From: an uncultured bacterium
GTDB lineage: Bacteria; Omnitrophota; Gorgyraeia; Zapsychrales; Aceulaceae
Reading direction: 5' to 3'
Assembly: GCA_937930175.1 (NCBI GenBank)
Contig: CALGLP010000013.1
Coordinates: 267,764-331,763, forward strand
Length of the DNA: 64,000 nt
A model generated the notes under the pieces. The model worked only from the letters and a program-made list of their open reading frames with translations, was not told where the DNA came from and did no database searches. A program made the translations under genes and the position numbers. Shown one piece after another: positions 9,640-60,361 of this stretch (the stretch's first letter is position 1; every line of letters starts with the position of its first letter).

Positions 9640-9718
9640 TAGAGCAATCGAGAATCGAGATTTGAAAATGGATTGTTAAGCGACTCGATTGCGATCAATT
9701 CTCAATTATCAATTTTCA

Positions 9719-10069
9719 ATGTCTATGGCATTTATTTTCGAAAACCTCGATGTTTATCAGAAGGCTGTTGATTTTGCAGATGAGGTTTCTTCTTTAGCGG
9801 AAAAGTTCCCTAGAGGAAGTTACTACTTAGTTGACCAGCTCAATAGGGCCGCACTATCGATAGCCACTAATATCGCAGAAGGAAACGGAAAATATCACAA
9901 AGCCGATAGGATTAATTTTTTTAGGATTGCTCGTGGATCTGCTTTTGAATGTGTTCCTATCCTGGAAATTTGCAAGCGTAAGTCTTTGGTTGAAGAAAGA
10001 ACACATGCCGATTACAAGAAGAAGCTTGAAGATATCTGCAAGATGTTGTCCGGTCTTATGAATTATTAA
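9719..10069 (+). CDS. four-helix-bundle protein (TIGR02436 / 23S rRNA intervening-sequence protein family), copy 1
   Basis: Family signature: LDVYQKAVDFADEV...LVDQLNRAALSIATNIAEGNGKY...RIARGSAFEC. Three paralogs lie at 49031, 50230 and 59884. Confidence 0.8.
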   Translation: MSMAFIFENLDVYQKAVDFADEVSSLAEKFPRGSYYLVDQLNRAALSIATNIAEGNGKYHKADRINFFRIARGSAFECVPILEICKRKSLVEERTHADYKKKLEDICKMLSGLMNY

Positions 10070-11117: not shown

Positions 11118-12452
11118 ATGAAGAAATTATTAATCGCAGTATTGCTGGTGGCTGTCATGGCTGTCCCAGCTTTTGCTAGCGTACAAAATGTCAAAGTAAG
11201 CGGCGACCTCCAGACCACTTGGGCTGTCCGTGACACCTTTGATTTCACAGACACTGGAGATCAAGTTAATCAGAATCTCAATGACGTGATTTCTTATGCA
11301 CGCGTTCGTATTGATGCTGATTTAACTGACAATGTTTCAACCACAGTTCGCTTGCTCAATGAAAGAGCTTGGGGAGATGATACCTCTGGCAGCGCTAATG
11401 CTGATGTTGAACTTGATTTAGCCTATGTGCAGTTAAGAGAAATGCTATATTCACCTCTTACTGTAACATTAGGTCGTCAAGAATTGTTCTACGGCAATGG
11501 TTTCATCATTGGCGGTAATGGTCCAAATAATAACACATATACAGGCAGTCCTCTTGCTGAGAATGGTTTAAGAGATCTTAGCATGAGAAACAGTCTTGAT
11601 GCTGTTAAGGCGGTTTTAAATTATGACCCTTTAACCATCGATATGTTTGCTGCTGTTGTTGATTCTAATGATACGGTTCTTCAGGCAGAGAAGAATGATG
11701 ATGTTAATCTTTATGGTATCAATGCAAACTATAAGTTTTCTGATAAGTGGAATACTATTGCAGAAGGTTATTTCTTTTCAAAGTATGATCACAAGGCAGA
11801 CGGAGAAAAAAAAGATACCATTTATGTTCCTGGTATGCGTTTAAGCACAAATCCTATCAAGGGTTTGAACTTGCAGGGTGAATTGGCTTGGCAGCGAGGA
11901 AATCAATCTCCATTGGTTGGAACTCGTGGTGAGCGTGAAGCCGTGGCTGGACAGTTTATTGCTGGCTATCTTCTTCCATTTGAGAAGACAGCAAAGTATC
12001 AGCCAGTTGTTTCCTATGCCTTTACCTATGCCTCAGGTGATGATAATTATGCCTCAGGTGAAGTTAAGGGTTGGGATCCTATGTATGAGCATCTTTCAGG
12101 TGGCAAGATCTACAACGCGATCTTGAACTTTACCAATGTATCGTGTCATGAGCTTGCACTTTCTGTAAAACCAGTTGAAGATATTACATTAAAAGGCAGC
12201 TGGTCAATGTTGTACATGAATGAGGATCTCAATACAACGTTAAACATCTCTAGCCCAATGGGTGCCAGCGCGTATCCAGCAAATGGCAAGAAGGATTTAG
12301 GCGATGAAATCGACCTTGATCTAACCTATGCTTATACCGAAGATGTCTCTATCGGCATGAGCGCTGGTTGGTTTTTCCCAGGAGAAGCCTTTGAGAGAAA
12401 TGGTGACAGAACTGCAACACAGTTGTTGACCAGTTTGTCAGTTGCTTTCTAA
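11118..12452 (+). CDS. outer-membrane beta-barrel protein (porin-like), with signal peptide and C-terminal Phe
   Basis: Signal peptide MKKLLIAVLLVAVMAVPAFA. Alternating amphipathic beta-strands. Terminal ...SLSVAF matches the OMP C-terminal signature. AGGAG RBS. Confidence 0.6.
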   Translation: MKKLLIAVLLVAVMAVPAFASVQNVKVSGDLQTTWAVRDTFDFTDTGDQVNQNLNDVISYARVRIDADLTDNVSTTVRLLNERAWGDDTSGSANADVELDLAYVQLREMLYSPLTVTLGRQELFYGNGFIIGGNGPNNNTYTGSPLAENGLRDLSMRNSLDAVKAVLNYDPLTIDMFAAVVDSNDTVLQAEKNDDVNLYGINANYKFSDKWNTIAEGYFFSKYDHKADGEKKDTIYVPGMRLSTNPIKGLNLQGELAWQRGNQSPLVGTRGEREAVAGQFIAGYLLPFEKTAKYQPVVSYAFTYASGDDNYASGEVKGWDPMYEHLSGGKIYNAILNFTNVSCHELALSVKPVEDITLKGSWSMLYMNEDLNTTLNISSPMGASAYPANGKKDLGDEIDLDLTYAYTEDVSIGMSAGWFFPGEAFERNGDRTATQLLTSLSVAF

Positions 12453-12484
12453 AAGTTAGAAAAAGTTAGAAGGTAAGTATTATT

Positions 12485-15894: not shown

Positions 15895-15947
15895 GAAATC
15901 AAGGCCTTGATTATTTTTTTATTAGAATTGTGGTATACTTAAAGTAG

Positions 15948-37721: not shown

Positions 37722-37750
37722 ACTTTTTTAAAAAAAAGGAGTAGAGAAAA

Positions 37751-40700: not shown

Positions 40701-43042
40701 GCCAGGTACGGTTAAATGGTGCTGGACAGCAGGGAGTGTCTATCGGCTATTCAGATAACCAAACCAAGAATTTCATTGTTCTGGATACTACCGATCAGAA
40801 CGGCAACTACTCGTTTACTCGCAATTATGGTTTTACTGCGGACGTTTACGCGGTGGACGGGGTACATACCTATAGCCCAACGCATTACAGCTATACCAAT
40901 CTCAATCAGAATTATGTAAATAGGGATTATGATGCTTTTGATATGTTTAATATCATCGTCAAGACCGATGGCACAGAAGGCGCTTTAGTTGAGAACATTC
41001 AGACAGGAGAACAGGGAACGTTACTGTCTTATCCTGTGGAGTATAACGATCCATTTTATGGAGAGTTTAACGCTCTTGCGCCAGAAGGCTATGAGCTCGT
41101 GAGATGGGAAAATGACATGAAGGGTGATGGCAATTTGCTCATCATCGATATTGATCATGTGACTAAGAATGTCACCTTTACAGCGATCTTCGCCCTCAAG
41201 AAGTTTACGTTAACGTATTTAGCCGGCCCAGGCGGTACGATCAAGGGCCCAACTCCCCAAACGGTGAATTATGGAGGGGACGGTAAGCCGGTGAGGGCTG
41301 TAGCGGACCGTAGCCATCATTTTGTTAATTGGTCTGATGGCTCAGTCGAGAACCCAAGGCAGGATCTTAATGTCACAGAGGATATTACGGTCACGGCGAA
41401 CTTTGAGCAGAATATTGTTTTATATAATTTAATAGTCAATAGTGGCAGCGGAAGCGGGCAATACGAGGCCACCACGGTTGTCCCGATCGAGGCTGACCCA
41501 GCGCCACAAGGCCAGGAATTTGACCAATGGATAGGGGATATTGCGCACGTCAAGGATCCAATGTCCGCCAGCACGCAAGTCACCATGCCGGCCAATGATG
41601 TGGAGGTGACAGCGACGTATAAGCCAATCATGTACACCGTTATTGTTAAAACTGACGGCACAGAAGGCGCTTTAGTTGAGAATATTGAGACAGGAGAACA
41701 GGGAACGTTATTGTCTTATCCTGTGGAGTATAACGATCCATTTTATGGAGAGTTTAACGCTTTTGCGCCAGAAGGCTATGAGCTCGTGAGATGGGAAAAT
41801 GACATGAAGGGTGATGGCAATTTGCTCATCATCGATATTGATCATGTCACCAAGGATGTCACCTTTACCGCGATTTTTGCTAAAAAGCAATTTACCTTAA
41901 CCTATCTGGTTAATCCTCTAGAAGGAGGAACGGTAAGCTTAGCCAGCGAAGTTGTCACGTATGGTGAGAATGGTTCTCTGGTTTATGCCACAGCCAATCC
42001 AGGGTATCAGTTCACAGGTTGGAGCGGGGATGTTAACACAACAGAAAACCCTTTGCAAATCATCAATGTCACGCAGGATATGACCGCGGTGGCGAACTTC
42101 GCGCCTTTGGCTACCCACACTATTACCATTAAGACCGATGGCCTGGAAGGTGCCTTGATCAGGGATATGGATTCAGCGCTTGAATTGCCAGAGCATATTT
42201 TTACAGTTTATGATGGCTATAGCTTTAATGGGAATTTTGAAGCCTTGCCACCTGAGAGTTATGCCTTTGCCAAGTGGACGGGATATGACATTGTTGATCC
42301 TGAGAACCCTGTCTTGGAGTTAAGCCTTAACAATGTGACAGAAGACATTACGATCACGGCAAACTTCACGTTGAAATCATATAAAGTTTATGGGCATGCT
42401 TATATTACTTCAGTCGCGGGCGATAAAAAAGATGGTAGTGATGGGTCTATCTATATGCCGTTTATTGGCGGAGAAGTTGTGACGGTCGATCCCGATACCT
42501 GGGATATCATTGAACATACAGGCGTGATGACCGATGAACAGGGGTATTTTGAATTGTATAAGTCTGCCGGCTGGAGTGGGAGTATCGCATTATACCGTCC
42601 TGCGACAGGCACGGTTTTGTTTGCGCACATGGCAACCGGGCAGCCTTTGGGCCCTACAGCTATTCCGTCCCTTAGCGGAGATTACTTTGTTTATAATTAT
42701 ACACAATACGAAGAACCTGAAGACCCAAGTCAAATTTGGTTTTTGGGAAGTCCATTTGCGATATACCCTGTCGTGACGGGAAGGGTTGTGGATGAGAATA
42801 ATAATCCTGTGCAAGGAGTTGAGATAGATAATTTAGCGGACCCAGGCCCTGTTTACACCAATGAAAATGGTGAGTATTCTATTGAGCTTATAATGTTTCA
42901 TTATGAGCTTTGGGCAGATATTCAGCCTTCATTTCCGGGGGCTACGTTTACTCCGCAGGTGAGACATCTTCAGCCGCTTGATCGGGATTTTATGAATCAG
43001 GATTTTGTGATGCATTCAGCGGATCAAGGAAAGAAGAAGTAG
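37751..43042 (+). CDS. giant secreted protein (1763 aa): FG-GAP-like repeats, CarboxypepD_reg-like domains, Listeria-Bacteroides (InlB B-type) repeat domains, and a conserved C-terminal module
   Basis: Seven or more units of DYFG.SV.ISGD...VGA..DD..G..SGSAYIF (integrin-alpha FG-GAP pattern). Repeated ...GYHFVKWSD / GYQFTGWSG units of the List_Bact_rpt type. N- and C-termini are homologous to the 43196 protein. Confidence 0.8.
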   Translation: MNHATVFSKNKFVVRIVTLIVFINFMIPPQVISASQANLKSFSRNAASSKALAVAVKETTPSRIPESFFSDRKDESRGSTKGPGSRAWNDGEKIVAFDGVAQDYFGYAVAISGDTAVVGMPQDDDNGINSGSAYIYTKTGDQWLYSQKIKEGVTQDFFGRAVAIDGDTIVVGAPLEDENGSKAGAAYIFKKQVNGLWIKVQKITASDGEAEDEFGVSVSISGDNVVVGAHFYSDSYLRCGAAYVFKKNGDTWAQVDKLLAPDRAEADYFGESVSISQDTVIVGAHRDDDNGLESGSAYIFVKNASSGLWPLQQKVVPADGATNDAFGSAVSVYQDTAIIGAHLDDDKGEDSGSAYVYKRNGNSWSFFNKLLALDGAVEDYFGSAVSMSNGSAIVGARYHNDPELDRGAAYIFDEGLNWTETKELLAGDGAKDDYFGWSVGISDNVTIVGAWGDDDLGSKSGSAYIFTNTPAPNTYTITVKTDDTENALVRNLSNNEVGESLVYPVVAGQPFNGTFLAEPPATHVFKDWTNASPSFANPIDISIDPVEQDVTITANFVLKQVTVFGTIKDQNGQAIANAQLLRTVNGVAQPAINVPNINYFFSVSPGDTVAITPVAGGKVFPAGLADNPNWSGVVNANVNKDFIGINYGYVNVSGTVKDQDGQAIPVAKLNVTINGILQIINVPNINYSFAVHAGDQVSVTPAAVNYDFPAGLADNPSWAGMVLANVTKNFVGVANTFTLTYLAGPGGSISGPTPQTVAYGQNGQPVVAVPNPGYHFVKWSDNVMTAARQELNVTADLTVTAYFEIDQFTVSGQVRLNGAGQQGVSIGYSDNQTKDFILLDTTDDNGNYSFTCNYGFTADVYAVDGVHTYSPTHYSYVNLSQSYVNRNYIAVDTFTVSGQVRLNGTGQEDVVIGYSDNQTKNFIPLDTTDENGNYSFTRNYGFTADVYAVDGVHTYSPTHYSYVNLSQSYANKDYVAVDTFTISGQVRLNGAGQQGVSIGYSDNQTKNFIVLDTTDQNGNYSFTRNYGFTADVYAVDGVHTYSPTHYSYTNLNQNYVNRDYDAFDMFNIIVKTDGTEGALVENIQTGEQGTLLSYPVEYNDPFYGEFNALAPEGYELVRWENDMKGDGNLLIIDIDHVTKNVTFTAIFALKKFTLTYLAGPGGTIKGPTPQTVNYGGDGKPVRAVADRSHHFVNWSDGSVENPRQDLNVTEDITVTANFEQNIVLYNLIVNSGSGSGQYEATTVVPIEADPAPQGQEFDQWIGDIAHVKDPMSASTQVTMPANDVEVTATYKPIMYTVIVKTDGTEGALVENIETGEQGTLLSYPVEYNDPFYGEFNAFAPEGYELVRWENDMKGDGNLLIIDIDHVTKDVTFTAIFAKKQFTLTYLVNPLEGGTVSLASEVVTYGENGSLVYATANPGYQFTGWSGDVNTTENPLQIINVTQDMTAVANFAPLATHTITIKTDGLEGALIRDMDSALELPEHIFTVYDGYSFNGNFEALPPESYAFAKWTGYDIVDPENPVLELSLNNVTEDITITANFTLKSYKVYGHAYITSVAGDKKDGSDGSIYMPFIGGEVVTVDPDTWDIIEHTGVMTDEQGYFELYKSAGWSGSIALYRPATGTVLFAHMATGQPLGPTAIPSLSGDYFVYNYTQYEEPEDPSQIWFLGSPFAIYPVVTGRVVDENNNPVQGVEIDNLADPGPVYTNENGEYSIELIMFHYELWADIQPSFPGATFTPQVRHLQPLDRDFMNQDFVMHSADQGKKK
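40172..40945 (+). repeat. 3 x 258-bp in-frame tandem repeat (86-aa CarboxypepD_reg-like unit) inside the 1763-aa gene
   Basis: Unit starts at 40172, 40430 and 40688 (TTCACTGTCTCCGGCCAGGTGCGGCT...). Confidence 0.8.
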
Positions 43043-43057
43043 GGAGAGGCTATAAAA

Positions 43058-43086
43058 GGGCGGCCCCGCCGTTGGCGGGGCTGCCC
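43058..43086 (+). terminator. GC-rich hairpin GGGCGGCCCCGCC-GTT-GGCGGGGCTGCCC
   Basis: 13-bp stem directly after the stop. No strong U-tract. Confidence 0.5.
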
Positions 43087-43195
43087 AATTCAAGAACAAA
43101 AATGTATGACTCAAAACTTGCATAAAAGAAAGGGATATCACCCTCACCCATAACCCAGGCCTTGAAAGAGGCCTAAACAAAAGGAGCAGAGAGAA

Positions 43196-45160
43196 ATGAA
43201 CTACGCCACGGTTCTCTCGAAGCACAAGGTTGTTGTTCGGTTAGTCACGTTAGTTGTTTTCTTGAATTTTGCCATCCCGCCGCAAGCTATTTCCGCGGCA
43301 CAGTCCCAATCCCAAGCCTTTAAGCGTAATGTTGCCCCGGCGAAAGCGCTTGCCACGTCAGACCAGGAGAAAGCTAATAACCGCATTCCGGAGGAGTTTT
43401 TTGATAGTTCTTCTGGAGATGACGATTTTGGCGATGGTAAATTGACCGAGTTTGTGATCAATGGGAACTTTGAAACACCGACAAGTTTTACTCCGCCGAT
43501 ATATGACCCCTACATGCCTTTTGCTTTCGATGAGGTGTACGCTTGGCAGGATTCCCATGGCACTCCCCAAATTAAGCCATATTTTAAAACCGAGCCTGAT
43601 CATTATGCTCAGCTTGTAACTCTTTGCGATTCTAACCATCATAAAGGTGAAGGTATTTTTGCGAACGTTGCTCTAGTGTCTGGCGAAGAATATGTTTTGC
43701 AATTTAATTATAAGCTTGTGGAGTCAGAGATGACTTCACCGAGGAACGATCTTTTTATTTGTCTGTTCAACGCTGATCCGCCAGGACTTTCTGGGTCCAA
43801 CCAGGAGCCAGTACCAGCCGTAATGACTCCTGAAGGTGGAGCGATCAATATTTATGAAGCATATGCGCTTGCGCCAGACGCCCAGTGGCATACTGCTAAT
43901 GTAACTTTTACAGCGCCGACCGATGTGAACTATATCAAGCTGGGTATCTATGGTAAGTCGGATGGCTCAATCACGTACTCTAAGATAAATATTTTAATTG
44001 ATGATGTCAGTATTACCCCACAGGGGAATGTTATCACCGTCCAAACCGATGGCACGCTAGGTGCTGAGGTTAAAAACATCCTGACTGGTGAGCAGGGAGC
44101 AATATTAACCTACAATGTAGCCGAAGGCGATCCATTTTATGGAGAGTTTGATCCCCTGCCTCCAGCAAGCCATACCTTTAAGGGATGGAAATGGGAGGCG
44201 TCTGATGATCCAACGCTCATAATTGACATCAAGAACGTTACGGAGAATGTCACGGCGACTGCGTTATTTGAGATCAAGAAGCTCACCTTGACCTACACCG
44301 CGGGAGCTGGTGGTCGCATTAAGGGTCCAAGCCCGCAAGTCATTCCTTATGGCAATGACGGCAAGCCGGTGACGGCTGTACCGGATAACCAGCATCAGTT
44401 TGTCAATTGGAGCGATGGGTCCACCATGAACCCGCGCCACGATCTTGATGTCACGGCCAATATTGATGTTGTGGCAAACTTTGAACCTATTGTGCAAAAC
44501 TATAAGGTTTCCGGGTATGCCTATATCAATTTTCTCTGGGATAAGGACGAGGGGCAAAAAGATTATTCGGGATTTATCCCATTTATTGGCGGAGAGATCG
44601 TTGTGATCGATCCCAAGACCCAAGAGATCATTGAGAATTTAGGCATTGTCACCGATGAGCAGGGATATTTCGAGTTTACCAAGCCTGCGCATTGGAGCGG
44701 TTCGATAGCTGTTTATCGTCCGGCTAATGGTCAGATCCTCTTTGATTTCGTCCTCCTTTATCCGTTGAATTATATTGCTGACTTAACGGCTGATACCTTG
44801 ATCTATAACTTTGATACAACCGGGATCGGAGGGCATTTACCTCAGAAAATTTGGCATATCGGTTATTTCAATATGGAGCCGTATATTACAGGCAAGGTTA
44901 CTGATGAGCAGGGTAATCCTGTGGCGGGTGTGAAAATTAATAGCTGGGGAACATCAAGCAGTTATTACACCGATGAACAGGGAGAATATAAGTATCCATT
45001 TATTATGTTTCATCCTGAGCTTTGGGAAGTCGTTACGCCTGAAGATGATGATCCCAACACAGTCTTTGACCCACCGCAGCGAACACTTAAGCCGATGGAC
45101 CGGGATTATTATCATCAGGATTTTGTGATGATTACAGCGGATCAAGGAAAGAAGAAATAG
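43196..45160 (+). CDS. secreted protein (654 aa) with a List_Bact_rpt domain, paralogous at both termini to the 1763-aa protein
   Basis: N-terminus MNYATVLSKHKVVVRLVTLVVFLNFAIPPQAISAAQ versus MNHATVFSKNKFVVRIVTLIVFINFMIPPQVISASQ. The C-terminal 150 aa are homologous, and both end in ADQGKKK. Confidence 0.75.
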   Translation: MNYATVLSKHKVVVRLVTLVVFLNFAIPPQAISAAQSQSQAFKRNVAPAKALATSDQEKANNRIPEEFFDSSSGDDDFGDGKLTEFVINGNFETPTSFTPPIYDPYMPFAFDEVYAWQDSHGTPQIKPYFKTEPDHYAQLVTLCDSNHHKGEGIFANVALVSGEEYVLQFNYKLVESEMTSPRNDLFICLFNADPPGLSGSNQEPVPAVMTPEGGAINIYEAYALAPDAQWHTANVTFTAPTDVNYIKLGIYGKSDGSITYSKINILIDDVSITPQGNVITVQTDGTLGAEVKNILTGEQGAILTYNVAEGDPFYGEFDPLPPASHTFKGWKWEASDDPTLIIDIKNVTENVTATALFEIKKLTLTYTAGAGGRIKGPSPQVIPYGNDGKPVTAVPDNQHQFVNWSDGSTMNPRHDLDVTANIDVVANFEPIVQNYKVSGYAYINFLWDKDEGQKDYSGFIPFIGGEIVVIDPKTQEIIENLGIVTDEQGYFEFTKPAHWSGSIAVYRPANGQILFDFVLLYPLNYIADLTADTLIYNFDTTGIGGHLPQKIWHIGYFNMEPYITGKVTDEQGNPVAGVKINSWGTSSSYYTDEQGEYKYPFIMFHPELWEVVTPEDDDPNTVFDPPQRTLKPMDRDYYHQDFVMITADQGKKK

Positions 45161-45175
45161 GGAAGGTTAATAAGA

Positions 45176-45204
45176 GGGCGGCCCCGCCGCTGGCGGGGCC
45201 GCCC
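45176..45204 (+). terminator. GC-rich hairpin GGGCGGCCCCGCC-GCTG-GCGGGGCCGCCC
   Basis: Near-identical to the hairpin at 43058. Confidence 0.5.
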
Positions 45205-45360
45205 TTCAGAAAAAAGAAAATAAGAATGCATATCAACCACGCGCAAAAGAAATGAAGGGAAAGGAGGTGAGCTGATCTTAGTCTCTTCGTCAAGCGTCGG
45301 ACGCCATATAAAACCAAAAAGAACTTATTTTTAAAAAATACATAATACAAGGAGAAACTT

Positions 45361-47338: not shown

Positions 47339-47375
47339 GGGCTGACCCCGCCAACAGCGGGGTCAGCCCTTCTTA
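47339..47375 (+). terminator. intrinsic terminator GGGCTGACCCCGC-CAACA-GCGGGGTCAGCCC followed by TTCTTATATTT
   Basis: 13-bp stem plus a T-rich tail. Confidence 0.65.
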
Positions 47376-47392: not shown

Positions 47393-47420
47393 TTGACATC
47401 AGGTTTTTTTCTACTAAAAT
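47393..47420 (+). promoter_or_regulatory. candidate sigma-70 promoter TTGACA-N16-TAAAAT for the 47.5-63.9 kb co-directional cluster
   Basis: Consensus -35, 16-nt spacer, good -10. Lies 55 nt upstream of the acyl-CoA ligase ATG. Confidence 0.45.
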
Positions 47421-47475: not shown

Positions 47476-48981
47476 ATGGATATTAAACAACTTCTAATCG
47501 ATAAAGCGCGGATTTATTCGCAAAAGCCAGCCATTTTCTTTAAAGATCAGCCGATCAGCTTCAAAACTCTAGGTGAGCAGGTCTTTAAGTTGGCCAACGC
47601 CTTAAAGGTTTTAGGGGTTGCCAAAGGGGATAAGGTTGGGATATATCTGCCGAATTGTCCGGAATATATCTATAGCTATTTGGCTATCTTTTGTCTTGGT
47701 GCTACAGGTGTGCCGCTCGATTTTATGCTCAAGGAAGATGAGATCGCATCTTGCCTTACGCATGCTGAAGCAAAATACTTAATCTACATCCCCAAAGAAA
47801 ATCTATTGCCCCAAGAGCTTAAAGCCGTTGTCCCTAGCTTAAAAGAAATTATTAGTCTTCAGCCCCAGGTGGTTGGCACTCATGGGTACCATGAGCTTGT
47901 TGCGCAAGTCTCTTTAGATCCGATGAGCGTGTCTCTGAGTGAAAAAGATACAGCGCTTATTATGTACACCTCAGGCACGACCGGAAAGCCCAAAGGAGTT
48001 GTCTTGAATTATCGTCATCTCGATGGATCGCCGGCCGCGATGCATCATTTTGTGGATCTCAGTGATAAGGATGTGAAACTCTGTGCGCTTCCGTTAAGCC
48101 ACATCGCAGGGCTGATCTATATTCAAAATTGCCTTTTATTTGGGATCACGCTTGTTTTGATGGAGCGTTTTAATCCGGTGGAATTTTTGCGTCATGTCCA
48201 AGAATACAAGGTCACATGTTTTCATGTTGTGCCGGCGATGTACATGGCATTTTTGACATTGAAAAATATTGATAAATTTGATCTTGCGTCGATTCGCTGG
48301 ATGGTGGTTTTTGGCGCGCCAAACTCGCCGGATATGATGCGGCTGTTCCACAAGAACTGTTCGAATGCCAGGCTTTTGAACGGCTGGGGCATGACCGAGA
48401 CCTGTCCGCCTAATGTTGTGACACCCATGGACAGCGATAAGATCGAAAGCGTGGGCAAGCCGGCTCCGCATTGCGAGATACGGATTTTCGATGAAGAAGA
48501 AAAAGAATTAGCGCCAGGCGAGATCGGCGAAATCGTGATCAAGGGCTGGGTCGTGATGGATGGCTATTACAAAGATCCTGAGACAACAAAAAGCTTGATT
48601 TGGAACGGATGGTTTCATACCGGAGATTTAGGCCGTTTTGATGAGGAAGGATTTCTTTATATCGTTGGCCGCAAGAAAGAAATGATCAAGGTGGCCGGCC
48701 AGATCGTCTATGCCCCAGAGGTGGAAACCGTCTTGCACAAACATGTGGCGGTTGCTGAAGTCGCGGTCATTGGGGTTGCGGACAAACTGCGTGGTGAAGC
48801 GGTCAAGGCCTTTGTGACGCTTAAGCCTTCCGTCCTTGCGACCGCAGAAGAGTTGAGATTTTTTGCTAAAGACCATTTAGCGAATTTTAAAGTGCCTCAG
48901 GAGATTGTGATTTTATCCGAATTGCCGAAGAATAGATTGGGGAAGGTGGATAAGGAAAGATTGAAGATAGAGGGTAGATAA
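47476..48981 (+). CDS. AMP-dependent synthetase/ligase (acyl-CoA synthetase family)
   Basis: AMP-binding motif MYTSGTTGKPKGV, plus the GWGMTE and GDLGRFDEEGFLYIVGRKKEMIKV motifs. Confidence 0.85.
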   Translation: MDIKQLLIDKARIYSQKPAIFFKDQPISFKTLGEQVFKLANALKVLGVAKGDKVGIYLPNCPEYIYSYLAIFCLGATGVPLDFMLKEDEIASCLTHAEAKYLIYIPKENLLPQELKAVVPSLKEIISLQPQVVGTHGYHELVAQVSLDPMSVSLSEKDTALIMYTSGTTGKPKGVVLNYRHLDGSPAAMHHFVDLSDKDVKLCALPLSHIAGLIYIQNCLLFGITLVLMERFNPVEFLRHVQEYKVTCFHVVPAMYMAFLTLKNIDKFDLASIRWMVVFGAPNSPDMMRLFHKNCSNARLLNGWGMTETCPPNVVTPMDSDKIESVGKPAPHCEIRIFDEEEKELAPGEIGEIVIKGWVVMDGYYKDPETTKSLIWNGWFHTGDLGRFDEEGFLYIVGRKKEMIKVAGQIVYAPEVETVLHKHVAVAEVAVIGVADKLRGEAVKAFVTLKPSVLATAEELRFFAKDHLANFKVPQEIVILSELPKNRLGKVDKERLKIEGR

Positions 48982-49016
48982 GGTGAAGATGGAAAATGGA
49001 AGTTAGAAGTTGGAGG
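48982..49016 (+). repeat. left arm of the inverted repeat flanking four-helix-bundle gene copy 2 (GGTGAAGATGGAAAATGGAAGTTAGAAGTTGGAGG)
   Basis: Imperfect reverse complement of 49397..49425 (TCCATCTTCCAACTTCCATCTTCTATTGTC). Confidence 0.6.
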
Positions 49017-49030
49017 ATTGAAAAAGATTT

Positions 49031-49396
49031 ATGGCAATTCAAAAGTGTGAAGACTTAGAGGTTTATGCGTTGGCGTTTGATGCTGCAATGAGAATTTTTC
49101 AGCTAATAAAAGAATATCCAAAAGAAGAGACATACTCTTTAGTGAATCAGATAAGAATGTCGTCGAGGTCGGTCGCTGCCAATATTCGTGAAGGGTATGC
49201 TAAAAGAAAGTATCCAGATGTTTTTGTTAAGCATCTTAATGATGCGCTTGGATCGTCAGAAGAAACAGTAACATGGATCGATTTTAGTTGTCAGTGTGGT
49301 TATTTGCCAGAGAAGCAAGCAGTTGTTCTTAAGAAGACATATGCTTCCATTGGCGCTATGCTTTATCAATTGATGAAAGGGTGGCAAAAGTTTTAA
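49031..49396 (+). CDS. four-helix-bundle protein (TIGR02436 family), copy 2
   Basis: LEVYALAFDAAMRIF...LVNQIRMSSRSVAANIREGYAKR...LGSSEET. Confidence 0.8.
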   Translation: MAIQKCEDLEVYALAFDAAMRIFQLIKEYPKEETYSLVNQIRMSSRSVAANIREGYAKRKYPDVFVKHLNDALGSSEETVTWIDFSCQCGYLPEKQAVVLKKTYASIGAMLYQLMKGWQKF

Positions 49397-49425
49397 TCCA
49401 TCTTCCAACTTCCATCTTCTATTGT
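49397..49425 (+). repeat. right arm of the inverted repeat flanking copy 2
   Basis: See the left arm at 48982..49016. Confidence 0.6.
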
Positions 49426-49452
49426 CTATTTTTTTAAAGAAAGGATCCTTTT

Positions 49453-50205
49453 ATGACAATGCGTAAAGACATTCACTTGACCGGCCAGGATTTGATGCAC
49501 ATGGTGCAGCTGAGGCCGCAAGATATCGGTAAATACGCTCTTGTGCCAGGCCCCAAGGAGCGGCTCGATAGTCTTTTGAAAAAGATCGAGAATCCGGTTA
49601 AGAATTTTTCGTTCATGGAATATTCCATGTTTACCGGCACTTTCGCAGGAGCGAAGGTGACTGCGATCAATGGCGGACGATTTTCAGCGGATACGGCTAT
49701 CACGACGGAGATTCTCTGCAATGCGCAAGCCCAATACATGATCCGCATCGGCAGCTGCGGTGCTTTGCGCGAAGACATCAAGGTCGGGGATTTGATCGTG
49801 GCTGAAACCGCGATGCGCGGCGATGGCGTGACCCCGTATTATGTTAAAAATGATTTTAAGACTCAGGCTGATAGTGAGCTGACAAAGATCTTAAGCGATG
49901 TGGCGCAAGGCTCAGGCCTTAACGTCCATCAAGGCAAGGTGTGGTCCACGGATGCGATTTTGCGCGAGACGCGCGAGCATGTCGGCAAGGCTGTTGATGA
50001 GGGTTGTATCGCCGTGGACATGGTGACATCTGTTTTCTTAACCTTAGCGCAACTTTATAAAGTCAAAGCCGCGGTGATCCTTGCCGTCAGCGATAATATC
50101 ATTACCGGCGAAATGGGCTTTATGGATCCTAATTATTATATGGCTGAAGGATCAACGATTGGGATAGCGCTTAATTTGATAAAGAAGTTAGAGGGGAGAA
50201 GTTAG
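49453..50205 (+). CDS. PNP/UDP family-1 nucleoside phosphorylase (MTA / 5'-deoxyadenosine phosphorylase or nucleosidase-like)
   Basis: PF01048-type pattern (ALVPGPKERL, GGRFSADTAITTEIL, IRIGSCGAL, MRGDGVTPYY). Confidence 0.7.
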   Translation: MTMRKDIHLTGQDLMHMVQLRPQDIGKYALVPGPKERLDSLLKKIENPVKNFSFMEYSMFTGTFAGAKVTAINGGRFSADTAITTEILCNAQAQYMIRIGSCGALREDIKVGDLIVAETAMRGDGVTPYYVKNDFKTQADSELTKILSDVAQGSGLNVHQGKVWSTDAILRETREHVGKAVDEGCIAVDMVTSVFLTLAQLYKVKAAVILAVSDNIITGEMGFMDPNYYMAEGSTIGIALNLIKKLEGRS

Positions 50206-50223
50206 AAGGTAGAAGAAAGATAA
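50181..50223 (+). repeat. left arm of the inverted repeat flanking four-helix-bundle gene copy 3 (AAGAAGTTAGAGGGGAGAAGTTAGAAGGTAGAAGAAAG)
   Basis: Reverse-complementary to 50611..50635 (TTTCTCTCTTCTAACTTCTTTAAGG). Overlaps the last codons of the PNP gene. Confidence 0.6.
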
Positions 50224-50229
50224 GATCGA

Positions 50230-50610
50230 ATGCCGATTAAATGCTGCAAAGACTTGGAAGTGTACAATCGTTCGTTTCAAGTGGCGATGGTCATCTTTGA
50301 GAAAACCAAAATTTTTCCAGCTGAAGAGAAGTATTCTTTAGTTTCTCAGATTTTAAGATCGTCGCGTTCTGTTTCGGCAAACATTCGAGAAGGATATGCA
50401 AAGCGAAAATATCCAGATGTATTTGTAAGACATTTAAATGATGCTCTGGGTTCATCAGAAGAAACACAAACGTGGTTAGACTATTGTGAATCTTGCAGAT
50501 ATCTCGATCAGTTGACTTGTAAAAGATTAATAAAAGAATATGAGGAAATTTCAGCCATGCTTTTTGTTTTAATGAAATCGTGGCAGAAATTTGAGAAATC
50601 TAACGTCTAA
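50230..50610 (+). CDS. four-helix-bundle protein (TIGR02436 family), copy 3
   Basis: About 60% identical to copy 2 (LEVYNRSFQVAMVIF...SSRSVSANIREGYAKRKYPDVFV). Confidence 0.8.
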   Translation: MPIKCCKDLEVYNRSFQVAMVIFEKTKIFPAEEKYSLVSQILRSSRSVSANIREGYAKRKYPDVFVRHLNDALGSSEETQTWLDYCESCRYLDQLTCKRLIKEYEEISAMLFVLMKSWQKFEKSNV

Positions 50611-50635
50611 TTTCTCTCTTCTAACTTCTTTAAGG
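50611..50635 (+). repeat. right arm of the inverted repeat flanking copy 3
   Basis: See 50181..50223. Confidence 0.6.
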
Positions 50636-50640: not shown

Positions 50641-51609
50641 ATGACCGAATCTCCACTTTTTTGGCCAGCGAAATTTGAAGGCAAGACATTGCTTGTCCTT
50701 GATGAGACGCTGTTACCGGAAAAGATGTGCTATGTCAAAGTTCAGAATGTTGCGCAAGCCGTCAAGGTTATTCGTGAGATGAAGACCCGCGCCTTTGGCC
50801 AGTTTTTAGTTGTGCTAAGCACGTTTTTATTGGTACTTAAGAAAAATAAGACATGGAATGATGAGAAATTGATGGCTGAATTGCAAAAGACAGCCCAAGC
50901 CCTTAATGCTAGCCGTCCAACATTTCCGTTTGCAGAAGTAACTGGTATGATTATTGGTTGGGCTAAGAAAGACATGGAAAGTCATGTGCCTTTGCAGGTC
51001 GTGCTTCCTAAAAAGATCGATGGTTTCCTGCAAGGTATCCGTGGACGTCGTTTGGAGCGTGTACAAAGAATCGCGGATGTCTTGATGCAATATAATAATA
51101 TTTTAACGCATTGTAATGTGAGCGGCGAGCTCGCCATGGCAGCACAGCTTTGCAAGGCCAAGGGCAAGGAAATCAATTTCTTTGCAACGGAAACGCGTCC
51201 CTATTTTCAAGGTGCTAAATTAACGTGTTGGGAGCTCAATCGGGTCAAGGCACATGTCACGCTCGTTGCGGATAACGCTGTTGGAACGCTGTTGCGTGAT
51301 CATATGATTGATGCCGTGGTCATGGGATCCGATCGATCATGCGCCAACGGAGATGTCGCTAATAAAATTGGCAGCTATCAAATTGCTGTTGTGGCTAAAG
51401 AATTTGGCGTTCCAGTGTATGTGTTGACGCAGCCCTCGAATAAGATTCCAGCTGGCGCTGATATTCCCATTGAAGTGCGCCATGAAGACGAGCTTTTAAA
51501 ATTTAAGGGTAAGCGCATTACGCCAAAAGGCGTGAAGGGTTTTTATCCAGGGTTTGATGTTATTCCCAATAATCTAATCACACAAGCGATTGCCATCAAT
51601 GTTAATTGA
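50641..51609 (+). CDS. mtnA: eIF-2B alpha/beta/delta-family isomerase (S-methyl-5-thioribose-1-phosphate / 5-deoxyribose-1-phosphate isomerase, MtnA-like)
   Basis: ATETRPYFQGAKLTCWEL...VADNAVG...VMGSDRSCANGDVANKIGSY matches the MtnA / IF-2B family core. Confidence 0.7.
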   Translation: MTESPLFWPAKFEGKTLLVLDETLLPEKMCYVKVQNVAQAVKVIREMKTRAFGQFLVVLSTFLLVLKKNKTWNDEKLMAELQKTAQALNASRPTFPFAEVTGMIIGWAKKDMESHVPLQVVLPKKIDGFLQGIRGRRLERVQRIADVLMQYNNILTHCNVSGELAMAAQLCKAKGKEINFFATETRPYFQGAKLTCWELNRVKAHVTLVADNAVGTLLRDHMIDAVVMGSDRSCANGDVANKIGSYQIAVVAKEFGVPVYVLTQPSNKIPAGADIPIEVRHEDELLKFKGKRITPKGVKGFYPGFDVIPNNLITQAIAINVN

Positions 51610-52084
51610 AGAGAAAAAATCGATTGTTTTATTAAACGGCGTCTTTGAGGATGCTTTCTTTCATCTTTTAAAAGAACAAAAGATTAAGAAAGTGTATGTC
51701 CTTGAGGGTCGGCCGTATTTGGATGGAGCAAAGGCCTTGTGCTCAAAACTTATTAAGAATAGGATACAACCTGTTTTGATTGCAGATAATATGGCTGGGT
51801 TTCTTTTTTATAAAGATTTGGTGAAGGAGGTCTGGATTTCATACCAGGAGCCAGGTGACCAGAATATTTTAGCTAAGGTTGGGAGCCTTGTTTTAAGCGT
51901 GTTAGCGAAAAAGCATCAGGTGGCTGTTAAGGCCTTTCCGTCGGCCAAGCGTAAGAAATATATTGGTCATCCTAAAGATATTTTTAGCTTTGAGGGCAAG
52001 CGTGTTGCGGCCAAGGGTATTTATGGGTTTGTGCCGCTCTTAGAAGATGTCCCAAAAACATATTTATCGGAGATCTATTTATGA
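51590..52084 (+). CDS. truncated eIF-2B-family paralog (C-terminal Rossmann-like half only)
   Basis: VLEGRPYLDGAKALCSKL...VLIADNMAGFL...AKVGSLVLSVLAKKHQVAV parallels the C-terminal half of the preceding protein. Overlaps it by 20 nt. Confidence 0.5.
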   Translation: MPSMLIEEKKSIVLLNGVFEDAFFHLLKEQKIKKVYVLEGRPYLDGAKALCSKLIKNRIQPVLIADNMAGFLFYKDLVKEVWISYQEPGDQNILAKVGSLVLSVLAKKHQVAVKAFPSAKRKKYIGHPKDIFSFEGKRVAAKGIYGFVPLLEDVPKTYLSEIYL

Positions 52085-57134: not shown

Positions 57135-57389
57135 ATGCAATGGGAAAAAACAACACAGCAGAAGTATGAACTGATGATTTCTAAAATTCCTTTGTTCCAT
57201 CGCGAGATCACCAAACAAGTTGTTCCTCTGAAAGCTGAGGAAAACGCCAAAGCGCGTGGGGCGTTGGCGATTGAAGAAGGCGATGTGGTTCAGGCTTTTT
57301 TAAGCGAAGTCCCTAAGGCTTTCTTCAGCATGATGATTCGCTTGATGGATGACGTGGGGCTTGATTATAAAAAAGAAATTAGAAAATAG
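57135..57389 (+). CDS. small protein with a PCP_red-like pattern (standalone domain related to the C-terminus of protochlorophyllide reductase subunit B), tentative
   Basis: WEKTTQQKYELMISKIPLFHREITKQVV...ARGALAIEEGDVVQAF resembles the PF08369 pattern (W.EEA...L..IP.F.R). Not verifiable here. Confidence 0.3.
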   Translation: MQWEKTTQQKYELMISKIPLFHREITKQVVPLKAEENAKARGALAIEEGDVVQAFLSEVPKAFFSMMIRLMDDVGLDYKKEIRK

Positions 57390-57391
57390 AA

Positions 57392-57485
57392 GGGAGAGGA
57401 TAGAAAGAAAAGGAAAGAAAATGGATTGAAGAATGGTTTTTTAATTCTTAATCGTTCATTTCTAACTTCTATTTTCTATCTTCGC
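57392..57485 (+). repeat. cargo-less inverted-repeat hairpin of the same family as the four-helix-bundle cassette arms (GAAGGGAGAGGATAGAAAGAAAAGG... / ...CATTTCTAACTTCTATTTTCTATCTTCGC)
   Basis: Purine-rich left arm and a CTTCTAACTTCT-containing right arm, with a small inner hairpin AAGAATGGTTTTTTAATTCTT. No ORF between the arms. Confidence 0.55.
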
Positions 57486-58502: not shown

Positions 58503-58580
58503 CATCGTGAAGCGTGAAGCCTGCTGTCGGCAGGCAAGAGTGAAGCGCGCGTTTCACGCAATACGAAATACGTTTCACGT
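58503..58580 (+). repeat. hairpin-forming repeat (CGTGAAGCGTGAAGC ... ATACGTTTCACG), related to 62512..62590
   Basis: Shares the CGTGAAGC(A/G)TGAAG and ATACGTTTCACG blocks with the element after the ACP gene. Confidence 0.55.
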
Positions 58581-59858
58581 ATGAAAGAAAGTTTACCCAT
58601 GAAAAAAAGACGAGTCGTAGTGACAGGAGTTGGGGTTGTGTCACCTAATGGTATTGGCAATGAAGCTTGCTGGAAGGGTATGATCAACGGCGTTTCCGGC
58701 GTCAAGCGCGTTACGGAGTTTGATGTGTCGATGTTCATGACCCAGGTGGCGGCGCAGGTCAGGGATTTTGATCCGCACAAGCTTGGACTAACGCACGATG
58801 AAGCCGTGCGTATGGATCGTTATGTTCAATTTGCTGTTGTTGCGGCGCGCATGGCGCTGGAAGATTCCAAGATGGATTTAAGTAAAGTCAATAAAGAGCG
58901 CATGGGGGTTTCGCTTGCCAATGCGATTTGTGGCACCAAATATATGGAAGAAGAGTTTGCGCTTGTGACCGACAGTGGCAAGGAAGCCATTGATCCGGCC
59001 AAGGTGCGACCGGATCTTTACGACGCGGCGATGTTTAATACGCCTTCGAGTGAGATTTCGGCGAAGTATGGCCTGAAAGGAATCTGCAATACGATTTCAA
59101 CGGGGTGTACGGCGGGGACCGATTCTGTCGGGTTTTCTTTTGAAACGATTCGCGATGGCGATATCGATATCATGATTACTGGTGCTTCCGAGGCACCGAT
59201 CACGCCCATTACATTTGGTGCTTTTGATGTGGTTAATGTTTTGGCTGTGCGCAATGATGAACCTGAAAAAGCCTCGAGGCCTTTTGATAATGAACGCAAT
59301 GGATTTGTTATTTCAGAAGGCTGCGGCATTTTGATCCTCGAAGAGCTTGAGCACGCCAAGGCGCGCGGGGCCAAGATCTATTGCGAGGTCATTGGTTTTG
59401 GAACAACGTGCAATGCCTATCACATGACGGATCTGCCATCTGATGGCGAACCGATGAAGGATTGTATTGTTTTGGCCATGGAAGATGCAGACATTAAGCC
59501 GCAAGATATTGATTATATTAATGCACATGGCTCGTCGACTAGACAAAATGATGTCTTTGAAACCAATGCCTATAAAATGGCGTTAGGGGATTGGGCGTAC
59601 AAGATTCCTATTAGCTCGCTCAAGTCTATGATCGGACACCCTCTAGCTGGCGCTAATGGTGTTGAGCTAGCGGTGGGTGCGTTGATTTTTGAACGTAACA
59701 TGTTGCCGCCAACCATTAATCAGGTGCATCCTGATCCGGCATGCGATTTGGATTATGTGCCCAATGTCGCGCGTCCTAAGGTTGTCAATTGTATGCTTAA
59801 AACTTCGAGTGGTTTTTCTGGAGTGCATTCGTCGATGGTATTAAGGAGGTATAAGTAA
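58581..59858 (+). CDS. beta-ketoacyl synthase (KS; FabF/KS-alpha-like, catalytic Cys-His-His intact)
   Basis: Active-site context ISTGCTAGTDSV and the His motifs INAHGSST and MIGHPLAGANG. Start may be the ATG at 58599. Confidence 0.85.
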   Translation: MKESLPMKKRRVVVTGVGVVSPNGIGNEACWKGMINGVSGVKRVTEFDVSMFMTQVAAQVRDFDPHKLGLTHDEAVRMDRYVQFAVVAARMALEDSKMDLSKVNKERMGVSLANAICGTKYMEEEFALVTDSGKEAIDPAKVRPDLYDAAMFNTPSSEISAKYGLKGICNTISTGCTAGTDSVGFSFETIRDGDIDIMITGASEAPITPITFGAFDVVNVLAVRNDEPEKASRPFDNERNGFVISEGCGILILEELEHAKARGAKIYCEVIGFGTTCNAYHMTDLPSDGEPMKDCIVLAMEDADIKPQDIDYINAHGSSTRQNDVFETNAYKMALGDWAYKIPISSLKSMIGHPLAGANGVELAVGALIFERNMLPPTINQVHPDPACDLDYVPNVARPKVVNCMLKTSSGFSGVHSSMVLRRYK

Positions 59859-59860
59859 AA

Positions 59861-59888
59861 ATGTGTTATGTGAGATGTGATATGTGAG
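59861..59888 (+). repeat. left arm of the inverted repeat flanking four-helix-bundle gene copy 4 (ATGTGTTATGTGAGATGTGATATGTGAG)
   Basis: Reverse-complementary (with a few mismatches) to 60316..60341 (CACCTGACACATATCACATGACACAT). Confidence 0.65.
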
Positions 59889-60285
59889 AGGCAAAGAAAA
59901 GACAGTGAGTGTGAATTATCATCTATATAATTTTGATTTTGAAAAGCTTGATGTGTATCAGGAAGCCTTAGATTTTGCGAATGATGTATTTAAAATTACG
60001 AATGGTTTTCGAAGAGAGATCCAGTATTCTTTGGGAGATCAATTTAGGAGAGCTGCGCTTTCCATCTGCAATAACATCGCTGAGGGAAGTCAGAAAACAA
60101 CCCGGGGGAGAAAACAGTTTTATCATTATGCCCTGGATTCTGCTAGGGAATGTATTCCGATGATCAGTTTGTCCTTAAAGCAAAAAGAGATCTCACCTGA
60201 TGTTGAGATGCAGTTAAGGGGAAGGTGCTTGAAGATTTGTAATATGGTCTATAGACTCATACGATCTGTCGATGACAAGGGTTGA
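59884..60285 (+). CDS. four-helix-bundle protein (TIGR02436 family), copy 4; inserted between the KS and CLF-like genes
   Basis: LDVYQEALDFANDVF...LGDQFRRAALSICNNIAEGSQK...ALDSAREC. Start codon uncertain (GTG at 59884 or 59911). Confidence 0.7.
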   Translation: MRGKEKTVSVNYHLYNFDFEKLDVYQEALDFANDVFKITNGFRREIQYSLGDQFRRAALSICNNIAEGSQKTTRGRKQFYHYALDSARECIPMISLSLKQKEISPDVEMQLRGRCLKICNMVYRLIRSVDDKG

Positions 60286-60315
60286 CATTCCGGGCGTTGA
60301 TTTTTGTTTTACATT

Positions 60316-60341
60316 TCACCTGACACATATCACATGACACA
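60316..60341 (+). repeat. right arm of the inverted repeat flanking copy 4
   Basis: See 59861..59888. Confidence 0.65.
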
Positions 60342-60361
60342 TTTTTAAGAAAGGTTTTTCA

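Follow-up and report, generated by a model that had tools for sequence, protein, structure and literature searches.

Four-helix-bundle genes in the spacers of an Omnitrophota metabolic operon are enclosed by inverted heptamer arrays predicted to form long stems

Introduction

Intervening sequences (IVSs) of 23S rRNA, known from Leptospira, Coxiella and the Xanthomonas/Brucella type, can carry an S23p open reading frame (ORF) of the PF05635 family in the sense orientation of the host transcript, without a promoter of its own and flanked by inverted repeats that form a long stem. The Coxiella IVS is published as having tandem GACAGAT heptamers (x3) upstream of the S23p ORF, with RNase III cutting inside the inverted-repeat stem; the S23p protein is apparently not made in vivo (PMC4990558). 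Tandem 7-nt units also make up cyanobacterial STRR (short tandemly repeated repetitive) sequences, whose inverted arrays can form hairpins between co-transcribed genes, for example between hupS and hupL, where they have been proposed to stabilise transcripts or couple translation (PMC2670836). The IVS ORF and the STRR-type heptamers have each lacked a known function for more than 30 years, and in the papers we could search they are treated as unrelated, STRRs being described mainly in heterocystous cyanobacteria. A third group, the TAACTGA heptamer repeats of Beggiatoaceae, Cyanobacteria and Bacteroidetes, was reported as direct repeats lying a few nucleotides upstream of start codons, with only one inverted case and no associated gene family; the candidate binding proteins proposed were S1, Csp and CsrA (MacGregor 2015, PMC4679880). 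Avd, the accessory protein of diversity-generating retroelements (DGRs), belongs to a homologous four-helix-bundle (4HB) fold family (PHROG 3206; CDD grouping quoted in PMC10053308).

Here, we analysed a 64,000-nucleotide stretch of an uncultured Omnitrophota genome (the window; GCA_937930175.1, contig CALGLP010000013.1, positions 267,764 to 331,763), in which the initial annotation had noted that two of four TIGR02436-family genes, on either side of a PNP gene, sit between imperfect inverted repeats as in 23S IVSs. We confirm this observation and find that such packaging surrounds this gene family in many bacterial phyla.

Results

Inverted heptamer arrays enclose three of the four four-helix-bundle genes

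The operon, the 4HB genes and the heptamer arrays of the window lie on the + strand. The operon has a promoter-like site at 47393..47420 (TTGACA-16-TAAAAT, 11 of 12 matches), preceded by a terminator-like hairpin at 47339-47369, followed by an AMP-binding acyl-CoA ligase gene (47476..48981), a PNP/UDP-phosphorylase-family gene (49453..50205) and MtnA (start codon 50641). The two spacers of this operon contain 4HB genes at 49031..49396 (cassette 2, 121 aa) and 50230..50610 (cassette 3, 126 aa), whose products are 64% identical and match PF05635 (E 9e-29 and 1e-31) and TIGR02436 (91.6 and 104.1 bits against a cut-off of 24). Two further copies lie at 9689/9725..10069 (copy 1) and 59884/59914..60285 (cassette 4), and PF05635 scores for the four copies were 100.3, 109.7, 105.7 and 85.7 bits against a cut-off of 33.8. 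Sequence homology of the cassette 3 protein to the solved pentameric bundles 2GSC (E 1.9e-10) and 2RLD (E 3.4e-9) was also detected. Scanning for the sigma-70 consensus showed no promoter-like site in the arms of either cassette of this operon, and no terminator-like site was found there.

The arms are tandem 7-nt repeats, G/A-rich upstream and the complement downstream. In cassette 2, a C-free, purine-rich 5' arm (48963..49022; GAAGATA GAGGGTA ... GAAGATG GAAAATG GAAGTTA GAAGTTG GAGGATT) faces a G-free 3' arm (49397..49432; TCCATCT TCCAACT TCCATCT TCTATTG; period 7, 3.3 copies); 48989-49014 pairs with 49397-49422 (26 nt, 85%), and the extended version is 48986-49036 with 49382-49432 (51 nt, 73%). 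In cassette 3, the 5' arm (50180..50221; GAAGTTA GAGGGGA GAAGTTA GAAGGTA GAAGAAA; periods 7 and 14) faces a 3' arm (50599..50635; TCTAACG TCTAATT TCTCTCT TCTAACT TCTTTA) that ends at the ribosome-binding site of MtnA; 50180-50213 pairs with 50599-50632 (34 nt, 85% complementary), and three of the five mismatches are G:T, that is, G:U in the sense RNA. Cassette 4, between two ketoacyl-synthase genes, has arms built from a different repeat unit (5' arm 59856..59900, ATGTGAG/ATGTGAT; 3' arm 60303..60347, CACATGA-type; 45 nt, 78%). Three of the four copies are therefore enclosed, not two as initially annotated, and the arms are heptamer arrays rather than copies of one shared 12-mer, CTTCTAACTTCT occurring only in the downstream arm of cassette 3.

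The upstream arms begin inside the last codons of the upstream host genes. The ligase ends in ERLKIEGR* here, compared with EALKK* in the comparison locus L001, and the PNP-like protein ends in KKLEGRS*, compared with KKLEGK* in L001 and a second locus, L006.

Whole-cassette RNA folding predicted that each of the two operon genes is closed inside the long stem (cassettes 2 and 3, z = -2.7 and -4.4), which in cassette 3 has 27 consecutive pairs. To determine whether this pairing exceeds that expected from composition, we shuffled each arm with its dinucleotide content held fixed. The observed duplex energies of -41.5 (cassette 2), -43.3 (cassette 3) and -44.0 (cassette 4) kcal/mol, compared with shuffle averages of -23 to -26 (sd about 3.7), were reached by 1, 0 and 0 of 1000 shuffles, respectively. 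Among 56 window genes, the flank duplexes of cassettes 3, 2 and 4 ranked 1, 2 and 3. Copy 1 (9725..10069), downstream of tRNA-Arg, is not enclosed: its flank duplex ranked 50 of 56, and only a heptamer hairpin wholly upstream of the gene (9640..9722; AATCGAG / ATCAATT units) and a short direct repeat, TAGAGCnATCGAGAA, were found.

The cassettes are insertions into a conserved operon

Next, we compared orthologous Omnitrophota operons, which have spacers of 15-24 nt (ligase to PNP) and 4 nt (PNP to MtnA) with no arms and no gene, so each whole cassette is an insertion. Site A is empty in 40 of 51 relatives and site B in 51 of 71; the same junctions also accept toxin-antitoxin and restriction-modification modules. 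A relative has the site-A cassette plus a gene-less heptamer hairpin at site B. The one relative with a 4HB gene at the same site (L089) also has flanking inverted arrays, still complementary although synonymous sites are saturated (pS 0.72-0.82). Thus, neither test by which the initial annotation could have been refuted, a gene at the same position without inverted repeats or pairing no better than in shuffled spacers, did so. The protein is under purifying selection (pN 0.22-0.28 against pS 0.75-0.82).

We found no sign of recent transposition. Proteins of identical sequence occupy a single genomic context in 9, 14 and 23 contigs, cassette 3 has no relative between 69% and 100% identity, and five contigs of the window's own population are 100% identical, with no variation in repeat number. 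No target-site duplication could be defined, the empty-site relatives being too diverged (dS > 2) to resolve one.

Gene-less hairpins and other arrays in the window

Two gene-less (solo) heptamer hairpins lie in operon spacers of the window. The first (57369..57485; -30.2 kcal/mol, z = -3.4) starts in the last codons of ORF 57135..57389 and ends before a ketopantoate-reductase-like gene, and its 3' arm shares TTCTAACTTCT with the 3' arm of cassette 3. The second (58503..58583; CGTGAAG units) occupies the next spacer. Additionally, a direct array at 12450..12482, AAAAGTTAGA x2 plus AGG just after a porin-like gene, shares AGTTAGAAG with cassettes 2 and 3 (4 hits against 0.4 expected).

Heptamer arms accompany the gene family in many phyla

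To examine how general this arrangement is, we scored 80 homologues from many phyla. Raw duplex energies separated cassettes from controls only weakly, being confounded by GC content (control median -32.5), and were replaced by an alignment score. In this test, 42 of 80 homologues had an inverted-arm score of at least 24, against 7 of 262 neighbouring control genes, while about 45% of homologues lack clear enclosing arms. Flanks show lag-7 periodicity, with G exceeding C upstream in 92%, and period-7 arrays occur at 4.96 per kb within 120 nt of the gene against 0.276 per kb elsewhere, an 18-fold enrichment. The upstream neighbour is co-directional in 66 of 74 loci (89%), and 10 of 11 solo hairpins have the G-rich arm 5' on the operon strand. 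Similarity of the heptamer unit tracks protein identity (Mantel r = 0.30, 1 of 2000 permutations).

A genuine 23S rRNA IVS carrying a PF05635 ORF, in Azospirillum lipoferum 4B, has inverted heptamer arrays (CAGAGGA/CGGAGGA units) that close the ORF in a stem of about 33 bp. Cyanobacterial 4HB genes are likewise flanked by STRR-like arrays, although one cyanobacterial copy has direct, not inverted, arrays.

An Rfam search gave nothing on the cassettes at E <= 1 and, in the whole window at gathering thresholds, only tRNA-Arg, so that the window contains no rRNA. No defence-system hit was obtained with PADLOC, and no relatives were found on viral contigs or phage records.

Discussion

Our preferred interpretation, held with moderate confidence, is that these are promoterless IVS-type stem-loop cassettes, inserted exactly between the stop codon of one host gene and the ribosome-binding site of the next. 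In the absence of transcript data, we infer that each operon cassette is transcribed by read-through as part of the ligase-PNP-MtnA mRNA, that the two arrays pair into a stem of 25-45 bp whose loop is the 4HB message, and that RNase III, for which such a stem is a natural substrate, probably excises the 4HB RNA and leaves the flanking cistrons with stem remnants, as for the same element in 23S rRNA. This would permit insertion nearly wherever the host RNA tolerates an added stem-loop, probably with little effect on the host, which would explain its presence in rRNA helices, operon spacers and cas operons. Because the arms are tandem repeats, they stay complementary in many registers after slippage. 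Gene-less hairpins in equivalent spacers are most simply derivatives or relatives of the same element type, and the protein, whose role is unknown, is by homology to Avd most plausibly an RNA-binding scaffold. The initial annotation, which suggested that the cassettes may be mobile or selfish insertion units or RNase III processing modules, is supported as to IVS-like architecture and insertion, whereas cleavage in mRNA and present-day mobility remain unproven.

Compared with rRNA IVSs, the host RNA here is a protein-coding operon mRNA, with cassettes in the ligase|PNP, PNP|MtnA and KAS|KAS spacers rather than in helix 25 or 45 of 23S rRNA, and the 5' arm overlaps the last codons of the upstream gene. 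Compared with STRR hairpins, which the solo hairpins of the window and of relatives resemble, the structure occurs in Omnitrophota and many other phyla and carries a gene in its loop. The 3' arms (TAACTTC-type) sit in the same position relative to the next start codon as the TAACTGA repeats. Integron gene cassettes are also promoterless single ORFs associated with an imperfect inverted repeat and expressed from an external promoter; however, attC lies on one side of the ORF only and needs an integrase and an attI platform, whereas here the arms flank the ORF, the cassettes sit singly inside housekeeping operons and no integrase is nearby.

These data suggest that the IVS ORF and STRR-type heptamers are parts of one element type, the rRNA IVS being a special case of a cassette that mostly lives in ordinary operons, across Omnitrophota, Acidobacteriota, Bacteroidota, Planctomycetota, Chloroflexota, Cyanobacteriota and others. 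In the incomplete literature we could search, no paper links heptamer hairpins outside rRNA to this gene family. On this view, it is explained why 'four helix bundle protein' genes turn up inside conserved operons without belonging to them, including 23S_rRNA_IVP genes sitting between cas genes (PMC3936711), and annotators are warned against guilt-by-association calls. It also makes the biology testable in tractable organisms, for example Nostoc punctiforme (NPUN_RS36250) or Trichormus variabilis (AVA_RS28115).

A more speculative possibility, which we consider unlikely but cannot exclude, is that PF05635 proteins and inverted heptamer hairpins together form one ancient, very widespread class of RNA-level element, with a gene-carrying 'autonomous' form and gene-less hairpins, in which the 4HB pentamer would bind its own array and help maintain, process or spread it. 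23S IVSs, cyanobacterial STRR arrays (including those in RNase P RNA and in hupS-hupL spacers) and the TAACTGA-type repeats of Beggiatoa and Bacteroidota would then all be manifestations of a single system whose protein partner had not been recognised.

Alternatively, the arrays could act at the DNA level, as terminal inverted repeats or single-strand DNA hairpins recognised by a transposase or recombinase supplied in trans (MITE/REP-like), with the 4HB gene as a passenger or DNA-binding accessory and solo hairpins as the non-autonomous form. Presence/absence at orthologous sites, solo hairpins with the same units in the same genome and a weak Y1-transposase hit two genes away in one locus are compatible with this. 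Moreover, although the sense strand is more stable by 8-13 kcal/mol in the window, arm mismatches across the family are not biased toward G:U on the sense strand (58 against 48), and several solo hairpins fold equally well or better as antisense; this asymmetry therefore cannot settle RNA versus DNA. We nevertheless regard a DNA-level element as improbable: no transposase or integrase is associated in the window or in most loci, the arms vary in number and order of units rather than having defined termini, no recent copies were found, and a purely DNA-level element has no need for the strong orientation bias relative to host transcription.

Equally doubtful is a regulatory module benefiting the host, in which the hairpins are intercistronic mRNA stabilisers, processing sites or translation-coupling sites, as proposed for STRR hairpins, tuned by a repeat-binding 4HB pentamer encoded inside one of its own target sites so that it regulates itself. 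Purifying selection, the covariation of heptamer unit and protein, the persistence of the arms despite saturated synonymous divergence, the RNA-binding scaffold role of the Avd homologue in DGRs (PHROG hit; PMC10053308) and the many solo hairpins in genomes that carry 4HB genes all favour such a role. However, most orthologous operons work without any hairpin or 4HB gene, the acceptance of toxin-antitoxin and restriction-modification modules at these junctions points to a dumping ground for selfish DNA, the Coxiella protein is apparently not made, and the covariation can be explained by common descent of the arm-plus-gene unit.

That the genes are Avd remnants of DGRs, as a bAvd Pfam hit below the curated cut-off (E 1.7e-4) and the PHROG 'Avd protein of DGR' match might suggest, is effectively refuted for this locus, as the window contains no TR/VR-like repeat pair, all genes within about 5 kb are metabolic or secreted-protein genes with no reverse transcriptase, the cassettes are clean insertions into a conserved operon, and viral contigs and phage records yielded no relatives. 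Finally, although shuffled purine/pyrimidine arms already reach about -25 kcal/mol, a chance effect of low-complexity spacers is refuted by the shuffling, ranking, family-wide and period-7 controls described above.

Organisation of the four-helix-bundle genes

The window comes from a Candidatus Omnitrophota bacterium, and its cassette region is 100% identical to GCA_036722365.1. It holds four PF05635/TIGR02436 four-helix-bundle (4HB) genes, which we refer to as c1 (9725..10069), c2 (49031..49396), c3 (50230..50610) and c4 (59914..60285). Of these, c2 and c3 sit in an operon that starts at a strong promoter-like site (47393-47420), just after a terminator-like hairpin, with the gene order acyl-CoA ligase, c2, PNP-family phosphorylase, c3, MtnA, short MtnA-like gene, class II aldolase-SCP2 and aldehyde dehydrogenase, whereas c4 lies between two ketoacyl-synthase genes. 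The short (about 160 aa) second IF-2B/MtnA-like gene (51590-52084) overlaps the end of mtnA and is conserved in most Omnitrophota versions of the operon (loci L088-L167), so it is a real gene and not a fragment.

Inverted heptamer arrays enclose c2, c3 and c4

To determine whether these genes are enclosed by stems, as the initial annotation had proposed for c2 and c3, we searched their flanks for inverted repeats, which revealed arms of 34 nt at 85% for c3, 26 nt at 85% for c2 and 45 nt at 78% for c4. RNA folds of the whole cassettes close each ORF inside the long stem, which in c3 has 27 consecutive pairs. The initial annotation had also raised the concern that purine-rich and pyrimidine-rich spacers might pair by composition alone, and indeed shuffled arms already reach about -25 kcal/mol; however, this does not account for the data, since with the dinucleotide content of each arm held fixed, only 1, 0 and 0 of 1000 shuffles reached the observed -41.5, -43.3 and -44.0 kcal/mol for c2, c3 and c4, respectively. 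Also, among 56 genes of the window, the upstream/downstream flank duplexes of c3, c2 and c4 rank 1, 2 and 3. In contrast, the flanks of c1 rank 50 of 56, and a heptamer hairpin lies wholly upstream of that gene. The observation is therefore confirmed, and it is stronger and broader than initially stated.

Tandem Repeats Finder called period 7 (and 14) at every arm, with GAAGTTA-type units for c2 and c3, ATGTGAG units for c4, and AATCGAG / ATCAATT units near c1. The window holds few other period-7 arrays, and four of those (57369-57391, 57460-57483, 58506-58520 and 9646-9720) lie in hairpins that carry no gene. The 5' arms contain no C and the 3' arms no G, and in the window the sense RNA is 8-13 kcal/mol more stable than the antisense, because the mismatches are G:U.

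The cassettes are insertions into a conserved operon

We next compared the same operon, which is conserved across Omnitrophota, at the ligase-PNP (site A) and PNP-MtnA (site B) junctions. In the relative whose PNP is 94% identical (locus L001/L088), the ligase-PNP spacer is 15 nt, and in a further relative (L006/L093) the two spacers are 24 and 4 nt, with no arms and no gene. Over non-redundant metagenome loci, site A is empty in 40 of 51 and site B in 51 of 71. Both arms therefore belong to the inserted unit. The 5' arms reach into the host genes, as the PNP gene ends KKLEGK* (AAGAAACTCGAAGGAAAATAA) in L001 but KKLEGRS* (AAGAAGTTAGAGGGGAGAAGTTAG) here, and the ligase C-terminus is also altered.

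One relative (L089 = L008, PNP 90% identical) has a 4HB cassette at site A with the same left junction and its own complementary arms, while at site B, where the window has c3, it has a gene-less heptamer hairpin (GAAGATG units, -37.6 kcal/mol). Other relatives (L101, L118, L130, L147, L158 and L167) carry solo heptamer hairpins at these junctions. The same two junctions also hold unrelated small modules in relatives (L102 3076-3788, L108 2068-2783, L004 1101-2619 and L001 5753-6442), namely an MNT-nucleotidyltransferase plus HEPN pair, an N6/N4 methylase plus a BglII-type endonuclease, and a gene for a 229-aa Cys-rich protein. These spacers therefore act as landing places for extra DNA and are hot spots for selfish insertions.

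Heptamer arms occur across the gene family

To examine whether this arrangement extends beyond the window, we fetched eighty loci encoding homologues from species-representative genomes of many phyla. An alignment score between the upstream flank and the reverse complement of the downstream flank reached 24 or more in 42 of 80 4HB genes, against 7 of 262 other genes in the same loci, and the matched arms were nearly always heptamer arrays (GAAGGCA, GTAGGCA, GCAGGAA, GAAGGTN, GAAGTAA and others). Flank identity peaked at lag 7 (0.40-0.42, against about 0.30), with G exceeding C upstream in 92% of cassettes and C exceeding G downstream in 79%. Period-7 arrays occurred at 4.96 per kb within 120 nt of the ORF, against 0.276 per kb elsewhere, and were present next to 57 of 80 genes; many further solo inverted heptamer hairpins lie elsewhere in these loci.

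The upstream neighbour was co-directional in 66 of 74 loci, at a median gap of 86 nt, but the downstream neighbour in only 43 of 73, which fits a promoterless gene that depends on read-through. Additionally, similarity of the heptamer unit rose with protein identity (Mantel r = 0.30, 1 of 2000 permutations), indicating that arms and gene are inherited together, although host taxonomy is a confounder.

Relation to 23S rRNA intervening sequences and STRR repeats

A search of plasmids returned 42 records, mostly Nostocales. One of these, from the 750-kb plasmid AZO_p2 of Azospirillum lipoferum 4B (L186, 2835-3305), lies inside a 23S rRNA gene, as identified with Rfam, at a place where the plasmid gene table lists no feature. 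The 4HB ORF of this genuine intervening sequence (IVS) is closed by a stem of about 33 bp made of CAGAGGA/CGGAGGA heptamers and their complement, and its possible ATG (2848) lies inside the 5' heptamer arm. In line with this, the Coxiella IVS is published as having an AG-rich stretch plus three tandem GACAGAT heptamers before the S23p start codon, with a copy number that varies between strains, and RNase III cuts within the inverted-repeat stem at the first repeat (PMC4990558).

Cyanobacterial copies, from Nostoc punctiforme (NPUN_RS36250), N. flagelliforme, Tolypothrix, Leptolyngbya and Anabaena sp. 90, have inverted arrays whose predicted duplexes are -62 to -120 kcal/mol, with units GCAGGGG(A)/CCCCTGC or GGTGACA/TGTCACC. 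The Anabaena sp. 90 copy (L185, plasmid pANA02, 401-769), with GGTGACA/TGTCACC arrays, sits between cas6 and cas4, illustrating why the family has been suspected of being Cas-associated; 23S_rRNA_IVP genes have previously been seen between cas genes and were discussed as possibly Cas-related (PMC3936711). An exception to the hairpin rule is the copy on a plasmid of Oscillatoria nigro-viridis PCC 7112 (L180, 1360-2020), which is flanked on both sides by long G-rich arrays (GGGAGAGT-type) in direct orientation, so no stem can form.

Such 7-bp repeats are what the cyanobacterial literature calls STRR. STRR hairpins between hupS and hupL have been noted, with unknown function (PMC2670836), and a 1997 paper title records STRR inside the RNase P RNA gene (reference list of PMC2858038). 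TAACTGA heptamer arrays just upstream of start codons were catalogued in Beggiatoaceae, Cyanobacteria and Bacteroidetes without an associated protein (PMC4679880). Among the papers we could search, none connects the 4HB gene outside rRNA with heptamer hairpins. The cassettes described here are not rRNA IVSs, because they lie in mRNA, although they share the sequence-level features of one. A wider reading that ties together IVSs, STRR repeats and the 4HB protein is possible, but we regard it as unlikely.

The protein and a probable mode of action

The genes belong to PF05635/TIGR02436, and the protein is homologous to the pentameric four-helix bundles 2GSC and 2RLD and to DGR Avd, with no PADLOC hit. 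It is under purifying selection but evolves about five times faster than the host PNP gene (pN 0.22-0.28 against 0.04-0.06, with synonymous sites saturated). The arms of the orthologous site-A cassettes remain complementary despite that saturation, so complementarity is maintained.

Taken as a unit, each cassette consists of a G-rich heptamer array, a leader of 15-35 nt, the 4HB ORF and a C-rich complementary array. It is inserted between a stop codon and the ribosome-binding site of the next gene, has no promoter or terminator consensus of its own, and is oriented with host transcription. Most likely, the cassette is co-transcribed with the operon, and the arrays pair once the 3' arm is made. 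RNase III would then cleave the stem, as it does for the same element in 23S rRNA, releasing the 4HB RNA and leaving the neighbouring cistrons intact, so that the insertion would cost the host little, and repeat-built arms would keep pairing after slippage. The initial annotation, which had likened the cassettes to 23S IVSs and suggested that they may be mobile or selfish insertion units or RNase III processing modules, is supported on architecture and on insertion, while RNase III processing and mobility remain open. The near-constant order of the arms, G-rich arm first in 92% of cassettes and 10 of 11 solo hairpins, argues for a constraint at the transcript level, potentially Shine-Dalgarno-like units ahead of the ORF or the avoidance of a long exposed C-rich stretch that Rho could use, both of which are speculative.

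A DNA-level role for the hairpin is not excluded, since family-wide mismatch types are not biased toward sense-strand G:U (58 against 48), and some solo hairpins fold better as antisense. In a groundwater Omnitrophota lineage (L168-L175), a gene with a weak Y1-transposase (PF01797) hit lies two genes downstream of a 4HB cassette, about 1 kb from the 4HB gene, which may be coincidental. We found no sign of recent movement, as c3 has no relative between 69% and 100% identity, and proteins of identical sequence occupy one genomic context in 9, 14 and 23 contigs. There is no reverse transcriptase and no TR/VR pair nearby, so this is not a DGR.

Other repeats in the window

A non-coding stretch after a porin-like gene (12483-12800), with no convincing ORF and no Rfam match, has a strong GC-rich terminator-like hairpin (12485-12513) followed by two copies of a motif of about 60 nt (..TATCCCAAGCnAnCGTTAGCGA..). 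Intergenic or gene-start segments are repeated at 74-84% identity ahead of several large secreted-protein genes (42953-43101 vs 45074-45215; 37729-37908 vs 43174-43353; 13521-13624 vs 14770-14873 vs 15945-16041), and long in-frame tandem repeats lie inside ORFs (40172-40943, 258 nt x3; 16989-17212, 78 nt x2.9). Directly upstream of tRNA-Arg(CCT) (9539-9613), and running into it, an 86-nt unit is repeated 3.1 times (9281-9544; first and third copies 98.9% identical), with each unit ending with the first bases of the tRNA (GCGCCT), which might be a relic of repeated integration or duplication at the tRNA gene.
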